The notes beneath the pieces were generated by a model that was given only the letters and a program-made list of their open reading frames with translations, did not search any database and was not told where the DNA came from. From positions 27,730-91,729 of the forward strand of contig JAYFRI010000077.1 of the NCBI GenBank assembly GCA_034926015.1: a stretch of 64,000 bases of DNA, written 5' to 3'. This document shows positions 12,964 through 22,465 of this stretch, piece by piece (position 1 is the first letter of the stretch; the number at the start of each line of letters is the position of its first letter). This stretch comes from Paludibacter sp. (GTDB lineage: Bacteria > Bacteroidota > Bacteroidia > Bacteroidales > Paludibacteraceae). The position numbers were made by a program, and so were the translations under genes.

Positions 12964-12971
12964 TACTTTTG
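12964..12971 (+). promoter_or_regulatory. -7 box TACTTTTG upstream of queA
   Basis: Exact TAnnTTTG. It overlaps the TTG start used by the ORF track, which argues for a downstream start. Confidence 0.45.
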
Positions 12972-13004
12972 CACAAAAATACAACAATTTTTTCGGTAAG
13001 CCAC

Positions 13005-14231
13005 GTGAACCTAACAAAAGACAACAGCCCGATTTATATCGACGAATATAATTATCCTCTTCCTGATGAGCGCATTGCTAAATATCCTCTGACAAAACGG
13101 GATGCATCTAAATTATTGGTTTATAAAAATGGCGAAATCACCGAAAGTGTGTTTTCTTCCATTTCTGACTTTTTGCCCCACAATGCGCTCCTGGTTTACA
13201 ACAACACAAGGGTGATACAAGCCCGACTTCTTTTTAAAAAAGATACAGGCGCCCATATCGAGGTTTTCTGTCTGGAACCGTTACAACCTGCCGATTATGC
13301 ACAATCGCTGGGCTCAACTACCGAATGCGTTTGGAAATGTATGATAGGCAACCTAAAAAAATGGAAAGAAGGCAAGCTGAGCAAACAAATAGAATTGGCA
13401 GGTGAGAAATGTACATTTACTGCCGAACGACTTCAGACCGAAGGCAATACCCACTGCGTAAAGTTCAGTTGGGACAATGCCGCAATTCATTTTGCCGATA
13501 TACTCGAAAATGCAGGCGAATTGCCTATTCCGCCTTATTTGCATCGCAAAACCGAGGAAAGCGATCTGACCACCTACCAAACCGTTTATTCAAAAATCAA
13601 AGGTTCGGTGGCAGCTCCCACAGCCGGATTGCACTTTACCGAAGATGTTTTTGAGGGCCTGAAACCCAAACAGATTACAATAGAAGAAGTAACGCTCCAT
13701 GTAGGCGCCGGCACTTTTCAGCCTGTAAAAACACGCGACATTGCCGAACACCACATGCATACCGAAGTGATCTCGGTTCAACGCAGCACAATAGAAAATC
13801 TATTGAAGCAATTGGGCAATATCGTCGCAGTGGGAACAACCTCGGTAAGGACTTTGGAGAGTTTGTATTATATAGGATCTAGCCCCCTAAATCCCCCAAA
13901 GGGGGACTTACATGTTCTACACGTAGATCAATGGGCTCCATATCAGACAAAAGACAAGCTTACAACACGGGAGGCTCTACAAAACATCATTGATTACTTA
14001 GAAACTAACAACCTGACTACGCTTCATGCCGAAACGCAGATAATGATAAAACCGGGCTATAAATTTCGTGTAGTGGATGGTATGATTACTAACTTTCATC
14101 AACCTAAAAGCACCTTGCTTCTGCTTGTTTCGGCTTTTGTGGGTGGCAACTGGAAACAGATTTACGACTACGCGCTTGAAAATGATTTTCGTTTTCTGAG
14201 TTACGGCGACAGTTCGTTATTGTTAAAATAA
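13005..14231 (+). CDS. queA: S-adenosylmethionine:tRNA ribosyltransferase-isomerase (start uncertain; GTG 13005 proposed)
   Basis: YNYPLPDERIAKYP...APTAGLHFT...VGTTSVRTLES...NFHQPKSTLLLLVSAF are QueA motifs. Contains an in-frame repeat insert at 13882-13909. Confidence 0.9.
   Translation: MNLTKDNSPIYIDEYNYPLPDERIAKYPLTKRDASKLLVYKNGEITESVFSSISDFLPHNALLVYNNTRVIQARLLFKKDTGAHIEVFCLEPLQPADYAQSLGSTTECVWKCMIGNLKKWKEGKLSKQIELAGEKCTFTAERLQTEGNTHCVKFSWDNAAIHFADILENAGELPIPPYLHRKTEESDLTTYQTVYSKIKGSVAAPTAGLHFTEDVFEGLKPKQITIEEVTLHVGAGTFQPVKTRDIAEHHMHTEVISVQRSTIENLLKQLGNIVAVGTTSVRTLESLYYIGSSPLNPPKGDLHVLHVDQWAPYQTKDKLTTREALQNIIDYLETNNLTTLHAETQIMIKPGYKFRVVDGMITNFHQPKSTLLLLVSAFVGGNWKQIYDYALENDFRFLSYGDSSLLLK
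13882..13909 (+). repeat. solo arm of the GC-rich palindromic family inserted in frame inside queA
   Basis: GCCCCCTAAATCCCCCAAAGGGGGACTT, translated as SPLNPPKGDL. Confidence 0.9.
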
Positions 14232-14341
14232 ATCATTCTATTTTTCTCTTGCACAACCCTTGTGTTTTTCGTGTTTTTGCGTAACATTTCATCAAATCCA
14301 TAATTTACAAGGATTTTACTTTATGGAAAAAATTATCATTA

Positions 14342-14501
14342 CTCTCCCCCTCGTTTGCAACGAGGGGTAAATGGTAAAGCGTTTTAAACGCAAAAAAGAT
14401 AGTTTTATAATTAAAAATTGAAATATATCATCAGAAAATTACATATCTCTTTGTTATAAACAAACAACCATAAAACCCCTCGTTGCAAACGAGGGGGAGA
14501 G
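14342..14501 (+). mobile_element. MITE-like element, copy A (160 bp, hairpin-forming terminal inverted repeats)
   Basis: Ends are CTCTCCCCCTCGTTTGCAACGAGGGGT and ACCCCTCGTTGCAAACGAGGGGGAG. No ORF. Near-identical copy at 15528-15883. Confidence 0.8.
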
Positions 14502-14570
14502 CCGATAAATTTAAAGAATATATTTTTGATTGGAAGATAAACCTACAGTTCTATGGCGATCTTTCAATAG

Positions 14571-15080: not shown

Positions 15081-15204
15081 ATTTTTATTGAGGGCTTATA
15101 TCCCATTCCTCCGATCGGTTGTTTACTTGTTATTCGTTTTCTTTCATTATTATCATATACGATAACCACACTGCAAATATATAATATTTTCTTTGTTATC
15201 ACAA

Positions 15205-15438
15205 ATGATAATAAAAAAAGTGAACGAATTTCAAATTTACATATTGATAGGCAAGAAGATTCGAGAAGTAAGAGAAAGTAAAGGGATTTCTCAACAAGAG
15301 CTTGCAGATCGTTGTAATTTTGAGAAATCAAATATGTCGAGAATTGAGGCTGGACGGACTAATTTAACTTTAAAATCATTGTTTCTTATTAGTAAGTCTT
15401 TAGATGTCCCTTTGAAATTATTTTTTGACATAGACTAA
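15205..15438 (+). CDS. XRE-family helix-turn-helix transcriptional regulator
   Basis: IGKKIREVRESKGISQQELADRCNFEKSNMSRIEAGRTNLTLKSL is a canonical HTH_3/Cro-C1 pattern. Confidence 0.85.
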   Translation: MIIKKVNEFQIYILIGKKIREVRESKGISQQELADRCNFEKSNMSRIEAGRTNLTLKSLFLISKSLDVPLKLFFDID

Positions 15439-15527
15439 AAGAAACACCATTTAATTATTACAACTGCACTAAATTTAACTGTTAAATTTATAACTTAAAA
15501 CAAAAAACCCGCTTAGTTATTCACTTA

Positions 15528-15883
15528 CACTCCCCCTCGTTTGCAACGAGGGGTAAATGGTAAAGCGTTTTAAACGCAAAAAAGATAGTTTTATAATTCT
15601 ACTTTACCACAATAAAATATTAACCACAAAAGGATACAAAAGAATCACAAAAGGAAGAAAATTAAATTAGTCATGATACAAAAAACACATTTTCATTGTT
15701 GAGAATTATTTCTTTTGTTGACTTTTGTATCTTTTTGTGGTTCAACTATCATTAAAAATTTGATTGTGTTTTAATTTAGTAAAGTAGAAATAATTAAAAA
15801 CTGAAATATATCATCAGAAAATTACATATCTCTTTGTTATAAACAAACAACCATAAACCCCTCGTTGCAAACGAGGGGGAGAG
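15528..15883 (+). mobile_element. MITE-like element, copy B (same family and orientation as copy A, carrying a nested insertion)
   Basis: Colinear with copy A apart from a 189-bp insert at 15599-15787. Confidence 0.8.
15599..15787. mobile_element. second MITE family nested inside copy B
   Basis: Termini CTACTTTAC / GTAAAGTAG. Subterminal inverted repeats CCACAAAAGGATACAAAAG.. / ..CTTTTGTATCTTTTTGTGG. ATAATT is duplicated on both sides (putative TSD). Absent from copy A. Confidence 0.75.
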
Positions 15884-15929
15884 CCGTTAGCTCATTAGTA
15901 TTTTCATAACAATTGAAAAACAAGCTTTC

Positions 15930-16700
15930 ATGAAAAACATCTTACAATCAAATATTTTTTTGAATATGAAACACATTTTTATATCCATCATTTCATTAGT
16001 CATATCAATCATCGCAATTGGGTTATGCACTATTCAGGTAACACCTTCATATTCAATAAACGAGCAAACCTACATAGGAATCATTGCAACATTAATTGGA
16101 GTGCTTGTTACTTTTGTTGTTGGTTATCAAATTTTAAACACCCTAACATTCAAAGATGATATGAGAAAATTTGAAGAAAAAACAAAGGAGATTGACAAAC
16201 TCAAGGACGAACTCTATTTATTAGAAAATAAGTTAAAAGAGAACTTTGAATTGTCATCCATCCGCTTGGAATATAGCAGTGAAGGCTGGACTTATAGTGG
16301 CGAAGGGTTTAAAAGAACTCATAAAATGTTGATTTATTCTTTGAATTGTAAGAGAGATGATTATACTGAGATATATGGCCTTTTAAGAACTTTTATTTCA
16401 GAACTAAACACAAGAAGTTTATTTGGACCTGGTTGGGTATTAAACACATCTAAGGATACTACTAATCATTCTATTAACTCTATTAATGAGGGTAGAAAGT
16501 TATTAGCTGATGCAATAAACGAATACGATATGGAAATTAAGAAAGATCAAAAAATAATCCGTAATCATGATAATTTTGGACAGATACGTTCAGAGTATGA
16601 AAGAATAATGAAAAGATATCTGAAAAGAATTGAAGAGTATAGAAATGAGCCTGCAAAAACTCTTTCTCAACAAGATAAAGATGAGTATCTAAAAGATTAG
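15930..16700 (+). CDS. 2-TM membrane protein with cytoplasmic coiled-coil/helical domain, function unknown (start may be 15966)
   Basis: Two N-terminal hydrophobic helices, then KFEEKTKEIDKLKDELYLLENKLKE heptad-like region. Confidence 0.6.
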   Translation: MKNILQSNIFLNMKHIFISIISLVISIIAIGLCTIQVTPSYSINEQTYIGIIATLIGVLVTFVVGYQILNTLTFKDDMRKFEEKTKEIDKLKDELYLLENKLKENFELSSIRLEYSSEGWTYSGEGFKRTHKMLIYSLNCKRDDYTEIYGLLRTFISELNTRSLFGPGWVLNTSKDTTNHSINSINEGRKLLADAINEYDMEIKKDQKIIRNHDNFGQIRSEYERIMKRYLKRIEEYRNEPAKTLSQQDKDEYLKD

Positions 16701-16797: not shown

Positions 16798-18366
16798 TTA
16801 ACTCAAAAGACTTTCAGGAAACTTTGATTCATTTACTATTGATTCATTTATTGTCTGAAGCTGTTTTAAAACTGTCATGGTCTCTCTGTATTCTCTTGCC
16901 TCTGCTACTTTTGTGAATTCAATTTCAGCGTTTGCATGTTCTTTCACAAATTCTTCAATTTCTTCAAGACTCACCTGAAAAAATTCCTTTCTTCTATTTA
17001 CGCGATTAATACGCTTGTCATTAAACTTTTTGTGTAGTTCATATTCTAATTGTGGAGCATTTTCGGAAAATATGGTAGCATGAACATCAAATCTAAATGG
17101 AACAGAAGCATTACTTAATTCATCAACCCTATCTTTCGGGTCAAGTCTACGAGTCATACCAATTTTATAAATATCTTCTCCCAGAGTACCTATATTTGAA
17201 ATGACATAAATATATCCAACTTTTGTAGTTTGAGCTAAAGCAATAGCTCTTTCTTTCTTCTCTTGAGCTTCCTTTATTTGAGCCTCTAATTCTTTAACTT
17301 TAGCATTAAGCGCATCAACTTCACTCGGTGTCACGATTCCAAATTTCTGTTTGACTTTTTCTAATGCTTTTTGTAAGTATCTTTCTTCTTCTTCGGCTTC
17401 ACGTTCGGCTTTCTCGTAGTCTCTGAGTGCTTTTTCTTCTTCTCTAATTTGCTCACGTATTCTTTTCTGTTCTTCTTTTTCTTCGTATTTTTTAAGCTGA
17501 TATTCATAATTCAACTGTAACTCTTCCAACTTTAAATAAAGAAATTCTTTTTGGATTTCAAGAGAGTCAACAACACCAAACTGATTTAATTTTTCAAATG
17601 TTTTAATGATTCGTTCTTTTGACTTTTCGACATTATTCCATTTAACCCTTGAAATTAGGCTATTGCATTCGCCATTAAATGCTAACAACCATAATTTCTT
17701 ATGCTTTTTGGTCATTCGACGTCCCTCGGCCACGCTATTGTTTACAGTCCATTCAATACGACACAATATCGCTTTGTCTTCATCAATTAATGCTTTTTGC
17801 TTCTCAAAGTTAGATAAAATTTCATTTTTAAATACTTCTGTATCATCGTAATTAAATCTTGGTTGATAAAGACCAAAAGAGCCAATTTCAATAGTATCTT
17901 TGAAAATTTCAATCTCTTGATTTAAGCTGTTATAAATACTCAATCCTTCGAGATATTTTTCATTCAGTTCAATTCTTGCACTAATCAGATCATTCAATGC
18001 AATTTTCTTTTTTTCAAATTCTATGTCGTGTTCTATATATAGAGAGTACTTTGAATTTAATTCATCATTTCTTTGCTTAAGATCTTTATTTTCTGAATTG
18101 ACTTTTTGTAATTCAATATTTAACAATAAAATACTATCCTCCTTTTCTTTTAAAGATTCTTTTAGAGAACATAACTCTTCTTCTTTCTCTATAAGAAGCT
18201 TGGTCTTTTCATCAACTTTTTGCTTTAATGCTTGATTTTCCGAGTTGACTTTTTGTAATTCAATATCCAACAACGAAATACGACCCTCCTTTTCTTTTAA
18301 GGTTTCGTTTAGTGAACACAGTTCTTCGTCTTTCTGTATAAGAAGCTTGGCCTTTTTGTAAAACAT
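16798..18366 (-). CDS. DUF4041 coiled-coil protein with C-terminal T5orf172 (GIY-YIG-like) domain
   Basis: C-terminus GYIYVISN..IYKIGMTRRLDPKDRVDELSNASVPFRFDVHA...LEYELHKKF...RKEFFQV matches the T5orf172 pattern. Long Glu/Lys coiled coil upstream. Confidence 0.8.
   Translation of the reverse strand: MFYKKAKLLIQKDEELCSLNETLKEKEGRISLLDIELQKVNSENQALKQKVDEKTKLLIEKEEELCSLKESLKEKEDSILLLNIELQKVNSENKDLKQRNDELNSKYSLYIEHDIEFEKKKIALNDLISARIELNEKYLEGLSIYNSLNQEIEIFKDTIEIGSFGLYQPRFNYDDTEVFKNEILSNFEKQKALIDEDKAILCRIEWTVNNSVAEGRRMTKKHKKLWLLAFNGECNSLISRVKWNNVEKSKERIIKTFEKLNQFGVVDSLEIQKEFLYLKLEELQLNYEYQLKKYEEKEEQKRIREQIREEEKALRDYEKAEREAEEEERYLQKALEKVKQKFGIVTPSEVDALNAKVKELEAQIKEAQEKKERAIALAQTTKVGYIYVISNIGTLGEDIYKIGMTRRLDPKDRVDELSNASVPFRFDVHATIFSENAPQLEYELHKKFNDKRINRVNRRKEFFQVSLEEIEEFVKEHANAEIEFTKVAEAREYRETMTVLKQLQTINESIVNESKFPESLLS
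18052..18345 (-). repeat. 2 x 147-bp in-frame tandem duplication inside the DUF4041 gene
   Basis: Residues 8-56 (LLIQKDEELCSLNETLKEKEGRISLLDIELQKVNSENQALKQ..) repeat as 57-105 (LLIEKEEELCSLKESLKEKEDSILLLNIELQKVNSENKDLKQ..). Confidence 0.85.
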
Positions 18367-18488
18367 AATTTTCTAATTTAGATCTTAATTCCATTTCTCA
18401 AATAAAGTAATGTCCAACAACCAATATATCCCTAATTGCACACTTTGTTCATTCATAAGATATCATCTGCATTAATTCCCTGTAAACC

Positions 18489-19607
18489 TTAATCATTTTT
18501 GGAAGAATGGCGTTTTATTTTCAGTTTAAATACATCATTAAAATTTGGTTCCATATTATAATACATTATTTTTGAGTTCTGTGTTAGTTTTTTTACAATT
18601 TCTTTTTCTGTCTCAGTACATTTATAACCGAAATAGATAGCCTCAATTTCTGCATTTTCTTTCATAGGTAATGCAATAAAGTCTTCTTCGCAATCCGCAT
18701 TATACGATATAAGGCGAACTTCGTTTTCGTACGACCAATTATAATCTTTTCGTAGAAAGCCAGTAGCTATTGACATTTTCGGAACATTCAAATCAACTAT
18801 TTCATTTGGCTCTTCACCATAAACTATCTTTTTAAGACAAACATAAGGTTTATTCAACTCCGCTTTTCGCTTTGAACCTACAAAATCATTTTTAAGTCTA
18901 TACTTCACACAAATACCTTTGTGACCATTGGCATAATGTGACCACATTAGGATATTTTGTGGTATTGTATTATCTGATTTCATAGTATCAGTATTCGCAC
19001 AAAATGATCTGATTCTATAGTATTGATATGACTTTGCCAAATTGCGTAAATGTTTACTATACTTCTCGCTTTTGTTGTCTATATTTACATGTCTAAGATT
19101 ATTCTCATCAAGCCACATCATAACCAAACTGTCAAATGGGTCATTCATACATTTGGGCCTTACCAATGTAATTGTATCATTAGCCAAATCGGCATAAGTA
19201 TAATTATTACAGACTCTAAAACTGTAAACAACAACTCCCTTTTCTTCGTTTCCCTGAAAATCTGTTTCAATTTGAGATAAACAATATTGATATCTTCTGA
19301 AATAATGCATTGATTTTGTATCATCTAAATATGACCATATCTGACCAGCAAGGGGATAGAAAACTTTTGCATCTTCAACAAGTTTGTTTGTTATGTAATC
19401 AATAACAATCGGATCAGTTTTCAAATTAGCCTTACAACTAATTACATTTTCAAACTTGGTAACTAATTCATCAATAAAATCAGAAGCTTCTTTCATTTTC
19501 AAATCATCTTTATTTATTATTGCCTCTTTGAAAGTTGCGTTTGCACTTTCAAGCAACTGCATATATTGATGCCAATCAATATAATCGCTAATTATATTTT
19601 TATCCAT
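18489..19607 (-). CDS. DUF2971-family protein
   Basis: Motifs CMNDPFDS, MWSHYANGHKGICVKY and NWSYENEVRL match the DUF2971 pattern, with an extra N-terminal helical region of about 130 aa. Confidence 0.75.
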   Translation of the reverse strand: MDKNIISDYIDWHQYMQLLESANATFKEAIINKDDLKMKEASDFIDELVTKFENVISCKANLKTDPIVIDYITNKLVEDAKVFYPLAGQIWSYLDDTKSMHYFRRYQYCLSQIETDFQGNEEKGVVVYSFRVCNNYTYADLANDTITLVRPKCMNDPFDSLVMMWLDENNLRHVNIDNKSEKYSKHLRNLAKSYQYYRIRSFCANTDTMKSDNTIPQNILMWSHYANGHKGICVKYRLKNDFVGSKRKAELNKPYVCLKKIVYGEEPNEIVDLNVPKMSIATGFLRKDYNWSYENEVRLISYNADCEEDFIALPMKENAEIEAIYFGYKCTETEKEIVKKLTQNSKIMYYNMEPNFNDVFKLKIKRHSSKND

Positions 19608-19640
19608 AATATTATTTTGTCACATAAACCTATTCACCAA

Positions 19641-19648
19641 CAAAGTTA
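19641..19648 (-). promoter_or_regulatory. -7 box (TAACTTTG on the minus strand) upstream of the DUF2971 gene
   Basis: TAnnTTTG match about 34 nt upstream of the ATG. No comparable box was seen in the 122-bp gap before the DUF4041 gene. Confidence 0.4.
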
Positions 19649-20073
19649 CAAAAACTATTTAACAATACAAACAATTAAAAATCAGCAACAATACGCTCAA
19701 TTATTCAAAATATTAGGGGAATAAGGCATTCAGCGGTTGATTGCACAGTTATCCTCTTCAATTTTATGTCGTAAAACATAAAAAAACACTTCAAAATAAT
19801 TCACTTTAAAGTTCTTATTTTCACAAGAAAGCAATATATTTACGGCGTGTTTACAAGCTGTATTTTACAGACGGATTCCGAAAGAAAAAAATCTCAAATC
19901 AACGGAAATATGATAACTACAAACAATACTCCACCAAACAATTAACCGCCACCGCTCACAAACGGATAGTTCGGTCATTGATCATTTCCTTTTCAGGTGG
20001 CGCAAATTACACTCAGGTGACTAAGAAAATAGTTTTTTTTTCGAAAGTATTAACTCATAAATTTATCAACATT

Positions 20074-20460
20074 ATGCCAATACAATATTCGTTGATACAA
20101 CGTGTCAACCCTAAAGATACAACTGCACCGCGCAAGTTTTATGCAATAGCCAAAAGTAGTGGAGAAGAAACCACCCGACAGTTAGCATCAGAAATCAGCA
20201 AACGCAATGGGCTAAGCATAGCCGATGTTTATGCAGTACTCGAAGCTTTTATCGACCTGATTCCTGAAAGACTGGCCGATGGTAAAATTGTAAGATTAGG
20301 TGACTTTGGTAGTTTTAGCCTGACTTTAAGCAGCGAAGGCACAGCTACTGCAGAAGAATTCACTTCGGCGCTTATCAAAGGCAATAGTCTGAATTTCCGT
20401 CCGGGCAAACTAATACAGAAAGCCCTCGACACAGTAGATTATGCAAAAGTAAGCGATTAA
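20074..20460 (+). CDS. HU-family DNA-binding protein (Bacteroidota long type)
   Basis: MPIQYSLIQRVNPKD...RKFYA..K....T.RQLA.EIS...GLSIADVYAVLEAF...GKIVRLGDFGSF, an HU/IHF-like fold pattern. Confidence 0.7.
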   Translation: MPIQYSLIQRVNPKDTTAPRKFYAIAKSSGEETTRQLASEISKRNGLSIADVYAVLEAFIDLIPERLADGKIVRLGDFGSFSLTLSSEGTATAEEFTSALIKGNSLNFRPGKLIQKALDTVDYAKVSD

Positions 20461-22342: not shown

Positions 22343-22344
22343 AG

Positions 22345-22455
22345 GCCCCCTAAATCCCCCCAAAGGGGGACTTCAAGACTAATCCTCTATAAGAAAACAT
22401 CAAATATAAAAGCTACACGCACTCAAAAGTCCCCCCTTGGGGGGATTTAGGGGGC
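22345..22455 (+). repeat. complete REPIN-like doublet between guaA and tatD
   Basis: GCCCCCTAAATCCCCCCAAAGGGGGACTT, a 53-bp spacer, then AAGTCCCCCCTTGGGGGGATTTAGGGGGC. The arms are inverted repeats with one difference. Confidence 0.9.
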
Positions 22456-22465
22456 TGGAAATTCA

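Follow-up and report, generated by a model that had tools for sequence, protein, structure and literature searches.

The locus raises the question of whether two adjacent, uncharacterized genes of a Paludibacter MAG, encoding proteins of 372 and 522 aa on the same strand with 122 bp between them, make up one anti-phage system or two. The initial annotation, made from the sequence of the window (the whole stretch of DNA analysed, 64,000 nucleotides), proposed an unnamed two-gene system in which a sensor or scaffold protein is paired with a nuclease-like effector. The analysis presented here confirms the two reading frames and favours a different reading, to which we give a probability of roughly 0.78: the genes are two independent single-gene anti-phage systems lying side by side in a low-GC islet, rather than a new two-gene system. 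The features on which the argument draws are, in window coordinates:

18489..19607, minus strand: gene 1, 372 aa (MEA4850375.1), TPR-like N-terminal domain followed by DUF2971
19263..19607, minus strand: all-helical TPR-like N-terminal domain of gene 1, aa 1–115 (helices at aa 3–111 in the model)
18489..19262, minus strand: alpha/beta C-terminal DUF2971 domain of gene 1, aa 116–372, with the invariant columns of alignment A1
16798..18366, minus strand: gene 2, 522 aa (MEA4850374.1), SNIPE / PD-Lambda-1 homologue of the TM-less class
17530..17697, minus strand: DUF4041 ('SNIPE', PF13250) domain of gene 2, aa 224–279
16939..17217, minus strand: GIY-YIG (T5orf172/MUG113) nuclease domain of gene 2, aa 384–476, assigned by Pfam
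18061..18354, minus strand: 147-nt tandem duplication (82% identity) at the gene 2 N-terminus, giving a repeated 49-aa coiled-coil unit
18367..18488, minus strand: intergenic spacer, 122 bp, conserved in related strains
19641..19648, minus strand: TAACTTTG, resembling a -7-type promoter box of Bacteroidota and located 33 nt ahead of the ATG of gene 1
18399-18406, minus strand: TTTATTTG, one mismatch from the TAnnTTTG box, 32 nt ahead of the ATG of gene 2
15193-15438: XRE HTH gene
15930-16700, convergent: 2-TM SLATT-like gene

The islet that holds both genes spans 5.7 kb and is flanked by queA and HU/guaA. The GC content is ~0.28–0.32 across 14–20 kb, compared with ~0.40 for most of the remaining window, which together with the XRE gene bears out the earlier description of a low-GC island beside such a regulator. 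An Rfam scan of 14.0–20.8 kb gives no match.

Gene 2 matches the PADLOC model of PD-Lambda-1 (PDLC03976) with an E-value of 2.6e-154, residues 45–514 being aligned with profile positions 28–485 of 491, and on this similarity it is classified as a full-length homologue of SNIPE, formerly PD-λ-1, of E. coli (Vassallo et al. 2022; Saxton et al. Nature 2026). The SNIPE system consists of a single gene, whose product is a GIY-YIG nuclease associated with the membrane and cleaves phage DNA while it is being injected (Nature 2026); its DUF4041 domain binds DNA and probably also the phage tape measure protein (PMC13190303), and E414 is its catalytic residue. Gene 2 shares with it a central DUF4041 domain (Pfam score of 68.9 bits for a cut-off of 27), a long linker helix and a C-terminal GIY-YIG/T5orf172 nuclease domain (66.3 bits with T5orf172 and 72.9 bits with MUG113), as well as the lack of a conserved partner gene in its family. 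The assignment of the C-terminal domain to the GIY-YIG superfamily was thus correct, as was the call of DUF4041; the latter is, however, a compact central domain with coiled coils on both sides, and not the long coiled coil itself. The family-invariant residues of the GIY-YIG domain (alignment A2) include Y387, K401, G403, R406/R407, R413, E416 and E461.

The differences between gene 2 and E. coli SNIPE lie in the host, here a member of the Bacteroidota, and in the N-terminus, which in gene 2 is a coiled coil with a conserved MFYKKAKLL start and the 49-aa tandem duplication, found in this lineage only. Gene 2 contains no hydrophobic segment that could form a TM helix (highest Kyte–Doolittle mean of 1.03 calculated over 19 residues); its start codon is the earliest possible in the reading frame and its N-terminus is conserved among homologues. 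An N-terminal TM anchor is essential in E. coli SNIPE and present in 66% of homologues, the remaining 34% being TM-less. Because the SNIPE paper accepts the TM-less homologues, which it analysed only computationally, as members of the family, the missing helix does not exclude gene 2 from it. The same paper proposes that the N-termini of these homologues themselves target them to the membrane.

Gene 1 scores 36.2 bits with Pfam DUF2971 (cut-off 22, E-value of 1.6e-8), and the motifs NDPFD, MWSHYANGHKGICVKY and YENEVRL, listed for this domain in the initial annotation, are all located in its sequence. Its best PADLOC model, that of the candidate system PDC-S31 (PDLC04990, E-value of 1.3e-32), is also that of Aristaios (E-value of 5.3e-33), a validated single-gene, abortive-infection-like system of 316 aa from the Lactococcus plasmid pUCCL641D (Grafakou et al. 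2024). Direct comparison of gene 1 with Aristaios yields 27% identity over 249 aa by BLASTP (E-value of 2e-14) and a probability of 99% by hhalign (E-value of 4e-18). Both have DUF2971 with conserved NDPF, WxHYA and YENE motifs, and genes of the Aristaios/PDC-S31 type mostly stand alone; their N-termini are unrelated, with ~80 aa in Aristaios and a TPR-like domain of ~115 aa in gene 1. The latter domain had been regarded as unique, yet it has >100 homologues in a large Bacteroidales/prophage subfamily. Its TPR-like character is indicated by Pfam TPR matches in 10/38 members of the subfamily, and an HMM search of PDB sequences with gene 1 returns weak matches to TPR proteins only. The AlphaFold2 model of gene 1 has a pLDDT of 88.8.

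Every family-invariant residue of the DUF2971 domain is retained in gene 1 (R131, N155-D156-P157-x-D159, M221-W222-S223-x-Y225 and E294-x-E296 in alignment A1), and the gene is intact across many strains. Among these residues, Y225 and E294-x-E296 are the counterparts of the conserved Tyr of motif II and the ExE of motif III described for DUF2971 (PMC12522546). In the literature DUF2971 is placed near the ADP-ribosyltransferase-like toxins DarT and AbiGi, which are of the HYE type and bear an ExE motif. The Tyr and ExE positions are retained in gene 1, which differs from these toxins in having no neighbouring antitoxin such as DarG or AbiGii. This kinship comes from published remote-homology work and was not detected here with HMMER and Foldseek: Foldseek comparison of the full and C-terminal-only models with PDB and BFVD returns nothing significant, and a Pfam scan of all members of the gene 1 subfamily at E≤5 gives no match to AbiGi or DarT. 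Since neither these searches nor the HMM search of PDB sequences lend it support, an ADP-ribosyltransferase fold in gene 1 rests on the literature. Gene 1 is best described, as far as homology allows, as a predicted ADP-ribosyltransferase-like single-gene defence protein of the PDC-S31/Aristaios type, whose hypervariable N-terminal domain would be the phage-specificity or sensor module.

A role in phage defence, as first proposed, is thus supported by homology for both genes. The view of the pair as an unnamed system is not supported, given the matches of gene 2 to PD-Lambda-1 and of gene 1 to PDC-S31, the SNIPE and Aristaios families being known single-gene systems. Nor is a division into sensor or scaffold and effector required, as SNIPE has targeting domains of its own.

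An operon is plausible, because the two genes lie on the same strand 122 bp apart, with no terminator-like hairpin predicted and no exact TAnnTTTG box on the minus strand of the gap, and co-transcription is accordingly possible. The earlier statement that a promoter box occurs only before gene 1 holds for exact matches, TAACTTTG being present there, and fails once a single mismatch is allowed: TTTATTTG precedes gene 2 at a spacing that matches that of the box before gene 1, so gene 2 may have a promoter of its own. A single box is in any case weak evidence, because the motif is so common in the window (119 occurrences observed compared with 79 expected by chance). At the L094 locus, where another DUF2971 gene adjoins SNIPE, TACATTTG lies within the 259-bp gap. 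A sigma-70 promoter scan of the gap is uninformative for Bacteroidota.

This arrangement, with its short gap free of a terminator and of an exact internal box, is what would be expected of an obligate partnership encoded by one operon, in which the TPR-DUF2971 protein senses the phage or serves as a second effector and works with, or regulates, the SNIPE-type nuclease. Such a two-gene system is also favoured by the retention of the arrangement in the related strains L081, L083 and L340 and by two further independent adjacencies (L094 and L244), which bring to three, with the window, the lineages in which DUF2971 lies directly beside SNIPE; by a rough estimate, three adjacencies exceed the uniform genomic expectation. 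We nevertheless consider it unlikely. Each family includes proteins that function by themselves, and the near-consensus box TTTATTTG lies in the gap. Conserved co-occurrence of the two families is essentially missing from reciprocal surveys, the outcome set beforehand as speaking against the pair: SNIPE is found within ±10 kb of none of the DUF2971 loci surveyed (0/80 genome and 0/80 viral, 0/160), and DUF2971 accompanies a single distant SNIPE locus (0/80 metagenome and 1/80 viral, 1/160). Closer to gene 2, a DUF2971 neighbour occurs in 2/8 of the closest SNIPE lineages, the other 6/8 having unrelated upstream genes, and the SNIPE relatives P0123, P0124, P0125, P0127, P0131 and P0132, which are 67–80% identical, have unrelated neighbours. 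The three SNIPE-adjacent DUF2971 proteins share only 24–30% pairwise identity and occur in both gene orders; at L244 the order is reversed, the SNIPE has a TM helix and the adjacency forms part of a multi-gene island in which a NACHT-SNaCT7 STAND gene is also present. Across 177 SNIPE loci the neighbours are not conserved, which points to a stand-alone gene, and none of the genes neighbouring gene 2 in the window is found beside SNIPE outside its own lineage.

Strain comparison also argues against an obligate partnership, as the two genes evolve differently. SNIPE is 97–98% identical to its counterparts in L081 and L083 with a dN/dS value of 0.09, and is under strong purifying selection, whereas the DUF2971 gene is 76–78% identical to those of L081 and L082 with dN/dS values of 0.5–0.7. 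The divergent, allele-swap tract is limited to the 5′ end of gene 1 and stops inside the gene; the N-terminal domain encoded there shows 52–60% amino-acid identity and dN/dS values of 0.65–0.71 relative to strains whose flanks are 90–100% identical. The high dN/dS values of gene 1 could denote relaxed constraint, and ~18% of DUF2971 proteins are predicted effectors according to the literature, so that one or both genes might be non-defensive, for example if the DUF2971 protein were an ADP-ribosyltransferase effector that is secreted or directed at the host, or if the genes were relaxed, decaying passengers of a mobile islet. This we regard as highly improbable, given that the N-terminus of gene 1 lacks any hydrophobic segment fit for a signal peptide or TM helix, that gene 1 remains intact with its invariant residues, that it shares its best PADLOC model with the validated Aristaios, and that SNIPE is under such strong purifying selection.

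The absence of a TM helix in gene 2 invites a further explanation. E. coli SNIPE deprived of its TM helix is toxic and cleaves host DNA, and something must therefore restrain gene 2; that a partner protein does so is conceivable. A membrane protein acting in trans, either the 2-TM SLATT-like gene or one of the variable upstream genes, with DUF2971 as a bystander, would fit the conservation of the 2-TM gene beside SNIPE in L083–L085 (87% identity), and also the close homologues L178, with a 2-TM pentapeptide protein encoded 11 bp upstream, and L096, with a tail-anchored 119-aa protein upstream. However, among the 177 SNIPE loci the 2-TM gene adjoins SNIPE in its own lineage only, and comparison of this gene and of all neighbours of the close homologues with all 339 loci reveals no recurrence outside their own lineage. 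Tightly coupled upstream reading frames are about as frequent for TM-less (10/50) as for TM-bearing SNIPE (11/49), upstream membrane proteins number 2 and 3, respectively, and the SLATT_5 match of the 2-TM gene is below threshold. The SNIPE paper, moreover, credits the N-termini of the TM-less forms themselves with membrane targeting. Overall, a partner of this kind is very unlikely. It is also quite unlikely that in some lineages DUF2971 and SNIPE form a co-transcribed, functionally coupled pair, the adjacencies being due to selection and not to crowding in islands. In such a pair the hypervariable TPR domain might, for example, recognize a phage protein and thereby either license the TM-less SNIPE or hold it in check, which would otherwise attack host DNA; alternatively, the two genes might be selected jointly as a synergistic entry-plus-backstop module.

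The analysis demonstrates to which families the two proteins belong, that gene 2 has no TM helix, that the pairing is not conserved and that selection acts differently on the two genes. For the preferred reading of two independent systems, we infer the biochemical activities and the membrane targeting from homology and analogy. Gene 2 would be an envelope-held nuclease that cuts incoming siphovirus DNA during injection, its DUF4041 domain engaging both DNA and the tape measure complex and its C-terminal GIY-YIG domain cleaving; its N-terminus, a coiled coil, is of the type that the SNIPE paper proposes as the membrane-targeting element of TM-less homologues. In gene 1, the hypervariable TPR-like domain may sense the phage, and the fused DUF2971 domain would, as predicted in the literature, be ADP-ribosyltransferase-like with kinship to DarT and AbiGi. 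If gene 1 works as Aristaios does, its action would follow phage entry and resemble abortive infection, with phage gene expression shut down. The two genes, perhaps co-transcribed, would thereby provide layered protection, gene 2 acting at entry and gene 1 as a post-entry backstop, with neither needing the other.

Replacing an 'unnamed two-gene system' by two families with validated single-gene members removes a false lead. The locus adds a Bacteroidota example of the TM-less class of SNIPE, for which the avoidance of self-cleavage is at issue, and draws attention to a subfamily of TPR-DUF2971 proteins, common in prophages of Bacteroidales, whose hypervariable N-terminal domain is probably the site of phage specificity.

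The two open reading frames of the initial annotation are present as claimed, both on the minus strand and 122 bp apart, and the low-GC island is likewise real (GC ~0.28–0.32 over 14–20 kb, against ~0.40 in most other parts of the window). NCBI entries from a Paludibacter sp. MAG hold the same proteins (MEA4850375.1, MEA4850374.1 and MEA4850373.1). We read the locus, with a probability of about 0.78, as two adjacent single-gene defence systems: a SNIPE protein without transmembrane (TM) helix (gene 2), which would act at DNA entry, and a TPR-DUF2971 Aristaios-type protein (gene 1), which would act post-entry; the two may be co-transcribed. An unnamed two-gene system, as originally proposed, is disfavoured by the match of gene 2 to PD-Lambda-1/SNIPE, by that of gene 1 to PDC-S31/Aristaios and by the lack of conservation of the pairing.

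Features of the islet
12969–14231: queA (Queuosine_synth), islet boundary on one side
16798–18366, minus: gene 2, ORF of 522 aa
18399–18406, minus: near-box TTTATTTG, one mismatch to the box, 32 nt upstream of the gene 2 ATG
18489–19607, minus: gene 1, ORF of 372 aa
19641–19648, minus: promoter-like box TAACTTTG, 33 nt upstream of the gene 1 ATG
19978–20460: HU-HIG gene, islet boundary on the other side, where guaA and tatD also lie

Gene 2 carries the domains first assigned to it, Pfam placing DUF4041 at aa 224–279 and T5orf172/MUG113 at aa 384–476. The PADLOC PD-Lambda-1 model PDLC03976 matches it along almost its full length, with an E value of 2.6e-154 over profile positions 28–485 of 491, PF13250 is now named 'SNIPE' in Pfam, and the GIY-YIG positions are invariant in an alignment of 35 homologues. 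SNIPE, characterised in 2026, is a GIY-YIG nuclease anchored in the inner membrane that cuts phage DNA during injection; its DUF4041 binds DNA and probably also the tape measure protein, and removal of the TM helix leads to attack on host DNA (PMC13190303). The helix is absent in 34% of 474 homologues, whose N-termini (DivIVA-like, T3SS-ATPase-like, PH or DUF4428) are proposed membrane-targeting devices (PMC13190303). In contrast to the E. coli-type protein, gene 2 lacks the membrane-anchoring helix and has a coiled-coil N-terminus instead: no TM helix was found (highest 19-residue Kyte–Doolittle mean, 1.03), and the start codon is the earliest available in the ORF. Gene 2 belongs to the TM-less class. 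A 147-nt tandem duplication (82% identity; 18061–18354, minus) at the 5′ end creates a second 49-aa coiled-coil unit, limited to the window lineage and the SNIPE relative P0122; close homologues have a single unit or other insertions.

The N-terminus of gene 2, MFYKKAKLL..., is kept in Bacteroidota homologues. Residues 1–12 (18331–18366, minus; MFYKKAKLLIQK) follow a consensus, MFFxKxKKLL, conserved among TM-less Bacteroidota SNIPE homologues, and the region directly after it is hypervariable. One may speculate that these residues form a short amphipathic, cationic membrane-binding motif.

Gene 1 is confirmed as DUF2971 by Pfam and matches PDC-S31, a PADLOC candidate single-gene system (PDLC04990, E value 1.3e-32). 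Aristaios, a 316-aa DUF2971 protein of a lactococcal plasmid, is protective on its own: it blocks transcription and protein production of the phage, and its phenotype resembles abortive infection (PMC11381338, PMC13064643, PMC12967558). Its gene, which we located on pUCCL641D (L339, 3767–4717), has the same best PADLOC model as gene 1; the two proteins are 27% identical over 249 aligned aa (E value 2e-14), and hhalign gives Aristaios a probability of 99% against the gene 1 family profile. DUF2971 has been classified bioinformatically as ADP-ribosyltransferase-like, close to DarT and AbiGi; it carries an ExE motif and a Tyr that is strictly conserved (PMC12522546). All 27 invariant family positions, Y225 and E294-x-E296 among them, are present in gene 1. 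The ADP-ribosyltransferase fold is attributed to gene 1 from the literature; Foldseek searches for it against PDB and BFVD returned no significant match. Confident AlphaFold2 models (pLDDT 88.8 and 88.6) show an all-helical N-terminal domain (aa 3–111) followed by an alpha/beta C-terminal domain. The former is TPR-like: TPR Pfam models match 10 of 38 subfamily members, and the PDB sequence matches, which are weak, are to TPR proteins. This domain is common to a large Bacteroidales/prophage subfamily and is therefore not unique, contrary to what had been supposed.

The two genes also differ in their evolution. Window and L081, a locus of the same lineage, share 90–100% DNA identity in their flanks and 51–69% in a tract from 19708 to ~19320, which takes in the promoter region of gene 1 and about 100 codons from its start, encoding the TPR-like domain.

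Divergence of gene 1 (against L081 and L082) and gene 2 (against L081 and L083)
Gene 1 N-terminal domain: aa identity 52–60%, dN/dS 0.65–0.71, dS 0.36–0.57
Gene 1 C-terminal domain: aa identity 86–87%, dN/dS 0.52–0.58, dS 0.11–0.14
SNIPE (gene 2): aa identity 97–98%, dN/dS 0.09, dS 0.09–0.13

The raised dS in the tract suggests that alleles were exchanged by recombination. dS is similar in SNIPE and in the C-terminal domain of gene 1, but their selective regimes are very different. This contrast in dN/dS, together with the end of the tract inside gene 1, fits two separate modules, and the TPR domain fits a fast-evolving sensor domain.

That DUF2971 and SNIPE form a true two-gene system appears improbable. 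The pair is retained in the window's own lineage (L081, L083 and L340). The box upstream of gene 1, from which a single operon had been argued, exists but is weak evidence, since TAnnTTTG occurs 119 times in the window (79 expected by chance) and a one-mismatch copy lies in the gap; the 122-bp gap contains no exact TAnnTTTG and no terminator-like hairpin, and its near-box makes a separate gene 2 promoter possible. Conserved co-occurrence, the initial annotation's own check, was not observed when the partner family was sought within ±10 kb: SNIPE was present at 0/80 genome (tblastn and SNIPE HMM) and 0/80 viral DUF2971 loci, and DUF2971 at 0/80 metagenome (484 kb of flank) and 1/80 viral (1.1 Mb) SNIPE loci. 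The sole SNIPE-HMM match in the genome run, L081, belongs to the window lineage and was counted separately with its close relatives.

The one viral case, L244 (4800–9126 of an IMG/VR contig), has a TM-bearing SNIPE, followed after a few bases by a DUF2971 gene, in reversed order relative to the window, and a convergent NACHT-SNaCT7 STAND NTPase; because the latter adjoins, L244 is a compact, ordinary multi-gene defence island on a putative prophage. A 71% identical SNIPE (P0126) has an upstream DUF2971 gene (253 aa, 24% identical to gene 1) across a 259-bp gap containing TACATTTG. In six relatives with 67–80% identical SNIPE (P0123, P0124, P0125, P0127, P0131 and P0132), the neighbouring genes are unrelated and encode small unknown proteins, a 2-TM pentapeptide protein, a TacA/GNAT toxin–antitoxin pair and an MmeI restriction-modification enzyme. 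Pairwise identity among the three DUF2971 proteins encoded next to SNIPE is 24–30%. By rough estimate, three adjacencies in ~170 lineages would exceed a uniform genomic expectation but would still be within reach of defence-gene clustering in islands.

A trans-acting membrane anchor for TM-less SNIPE was also considered and is unsupported by neighbourhood counts: a tightly coupled upstream ORF accompanies 10/50 TM-less and 11/49 TM-bearing homologues, and an upstream membrane protein is no likelier beside the former. Convergent with SNIPE in the window is a 256-aa gene (15930–16700, plus) encoding two N-terminal TM helices and a coiled coil, with sub-threshold similarity to SLATT_5 (Pfam 19.3 versus 29.5 bits; NCBIfam 25.3 versus 60); it lies beside SNIPE in the window lineage only (87% identity in sister strains). 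At the loci of the closest SNIPE homologues (77–80% identical), a different, unrelated same-strand gene ends 11–25 bp upstream, none recurring at other SNIPE loci.

Genes upstream of the closest SNIPE homologues
L087, 9345–9881: 178-aa unknown protein
L177, 182–559: 125-aa coiled-coil protein
L178, 67–1320: 417-aa 2-TM pentapeptide-repeat protein

Elsewhere in the islet, a ~170-nt MITE-like element occurs in two copies 97–99% identical (14339–14507 and 15525–15598 plus 15790–15889, the second split by ~190 nt), each with perfect 27-nt terminal inverted repeats (CTCTCCCCCTCGTTTGCAACGAGGGGT); between them lie a lipoprotein-like ORF and the XRE gene. Within the 64-kb window the hairpin is confined to these two copies, and the element has no Rfam match. 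A 47-nt imperfect inverted repeat (74% complementary; 15120–15166/15195–15241) covers the XRE gene start and upstream region and may be an operator. Sister strains L340 (4495–4872) and L341 (3026–3403), whose HU protein is identical to the window's, carry a 125-aa bAvd/23S_rRNA_IVP four-helix-bundle gene between guaA and tatD; in the window this gene is absent and the interval is a 123-bp gap (22343–22465).

Of interest for these families are how self-cleavage is prevented in a TM-less SNIPE, the hypervariability of the TPR domain in the DUF2971 protein, and a DUF2971–SNIPE adjacency that is recurrent yet non-conserved.
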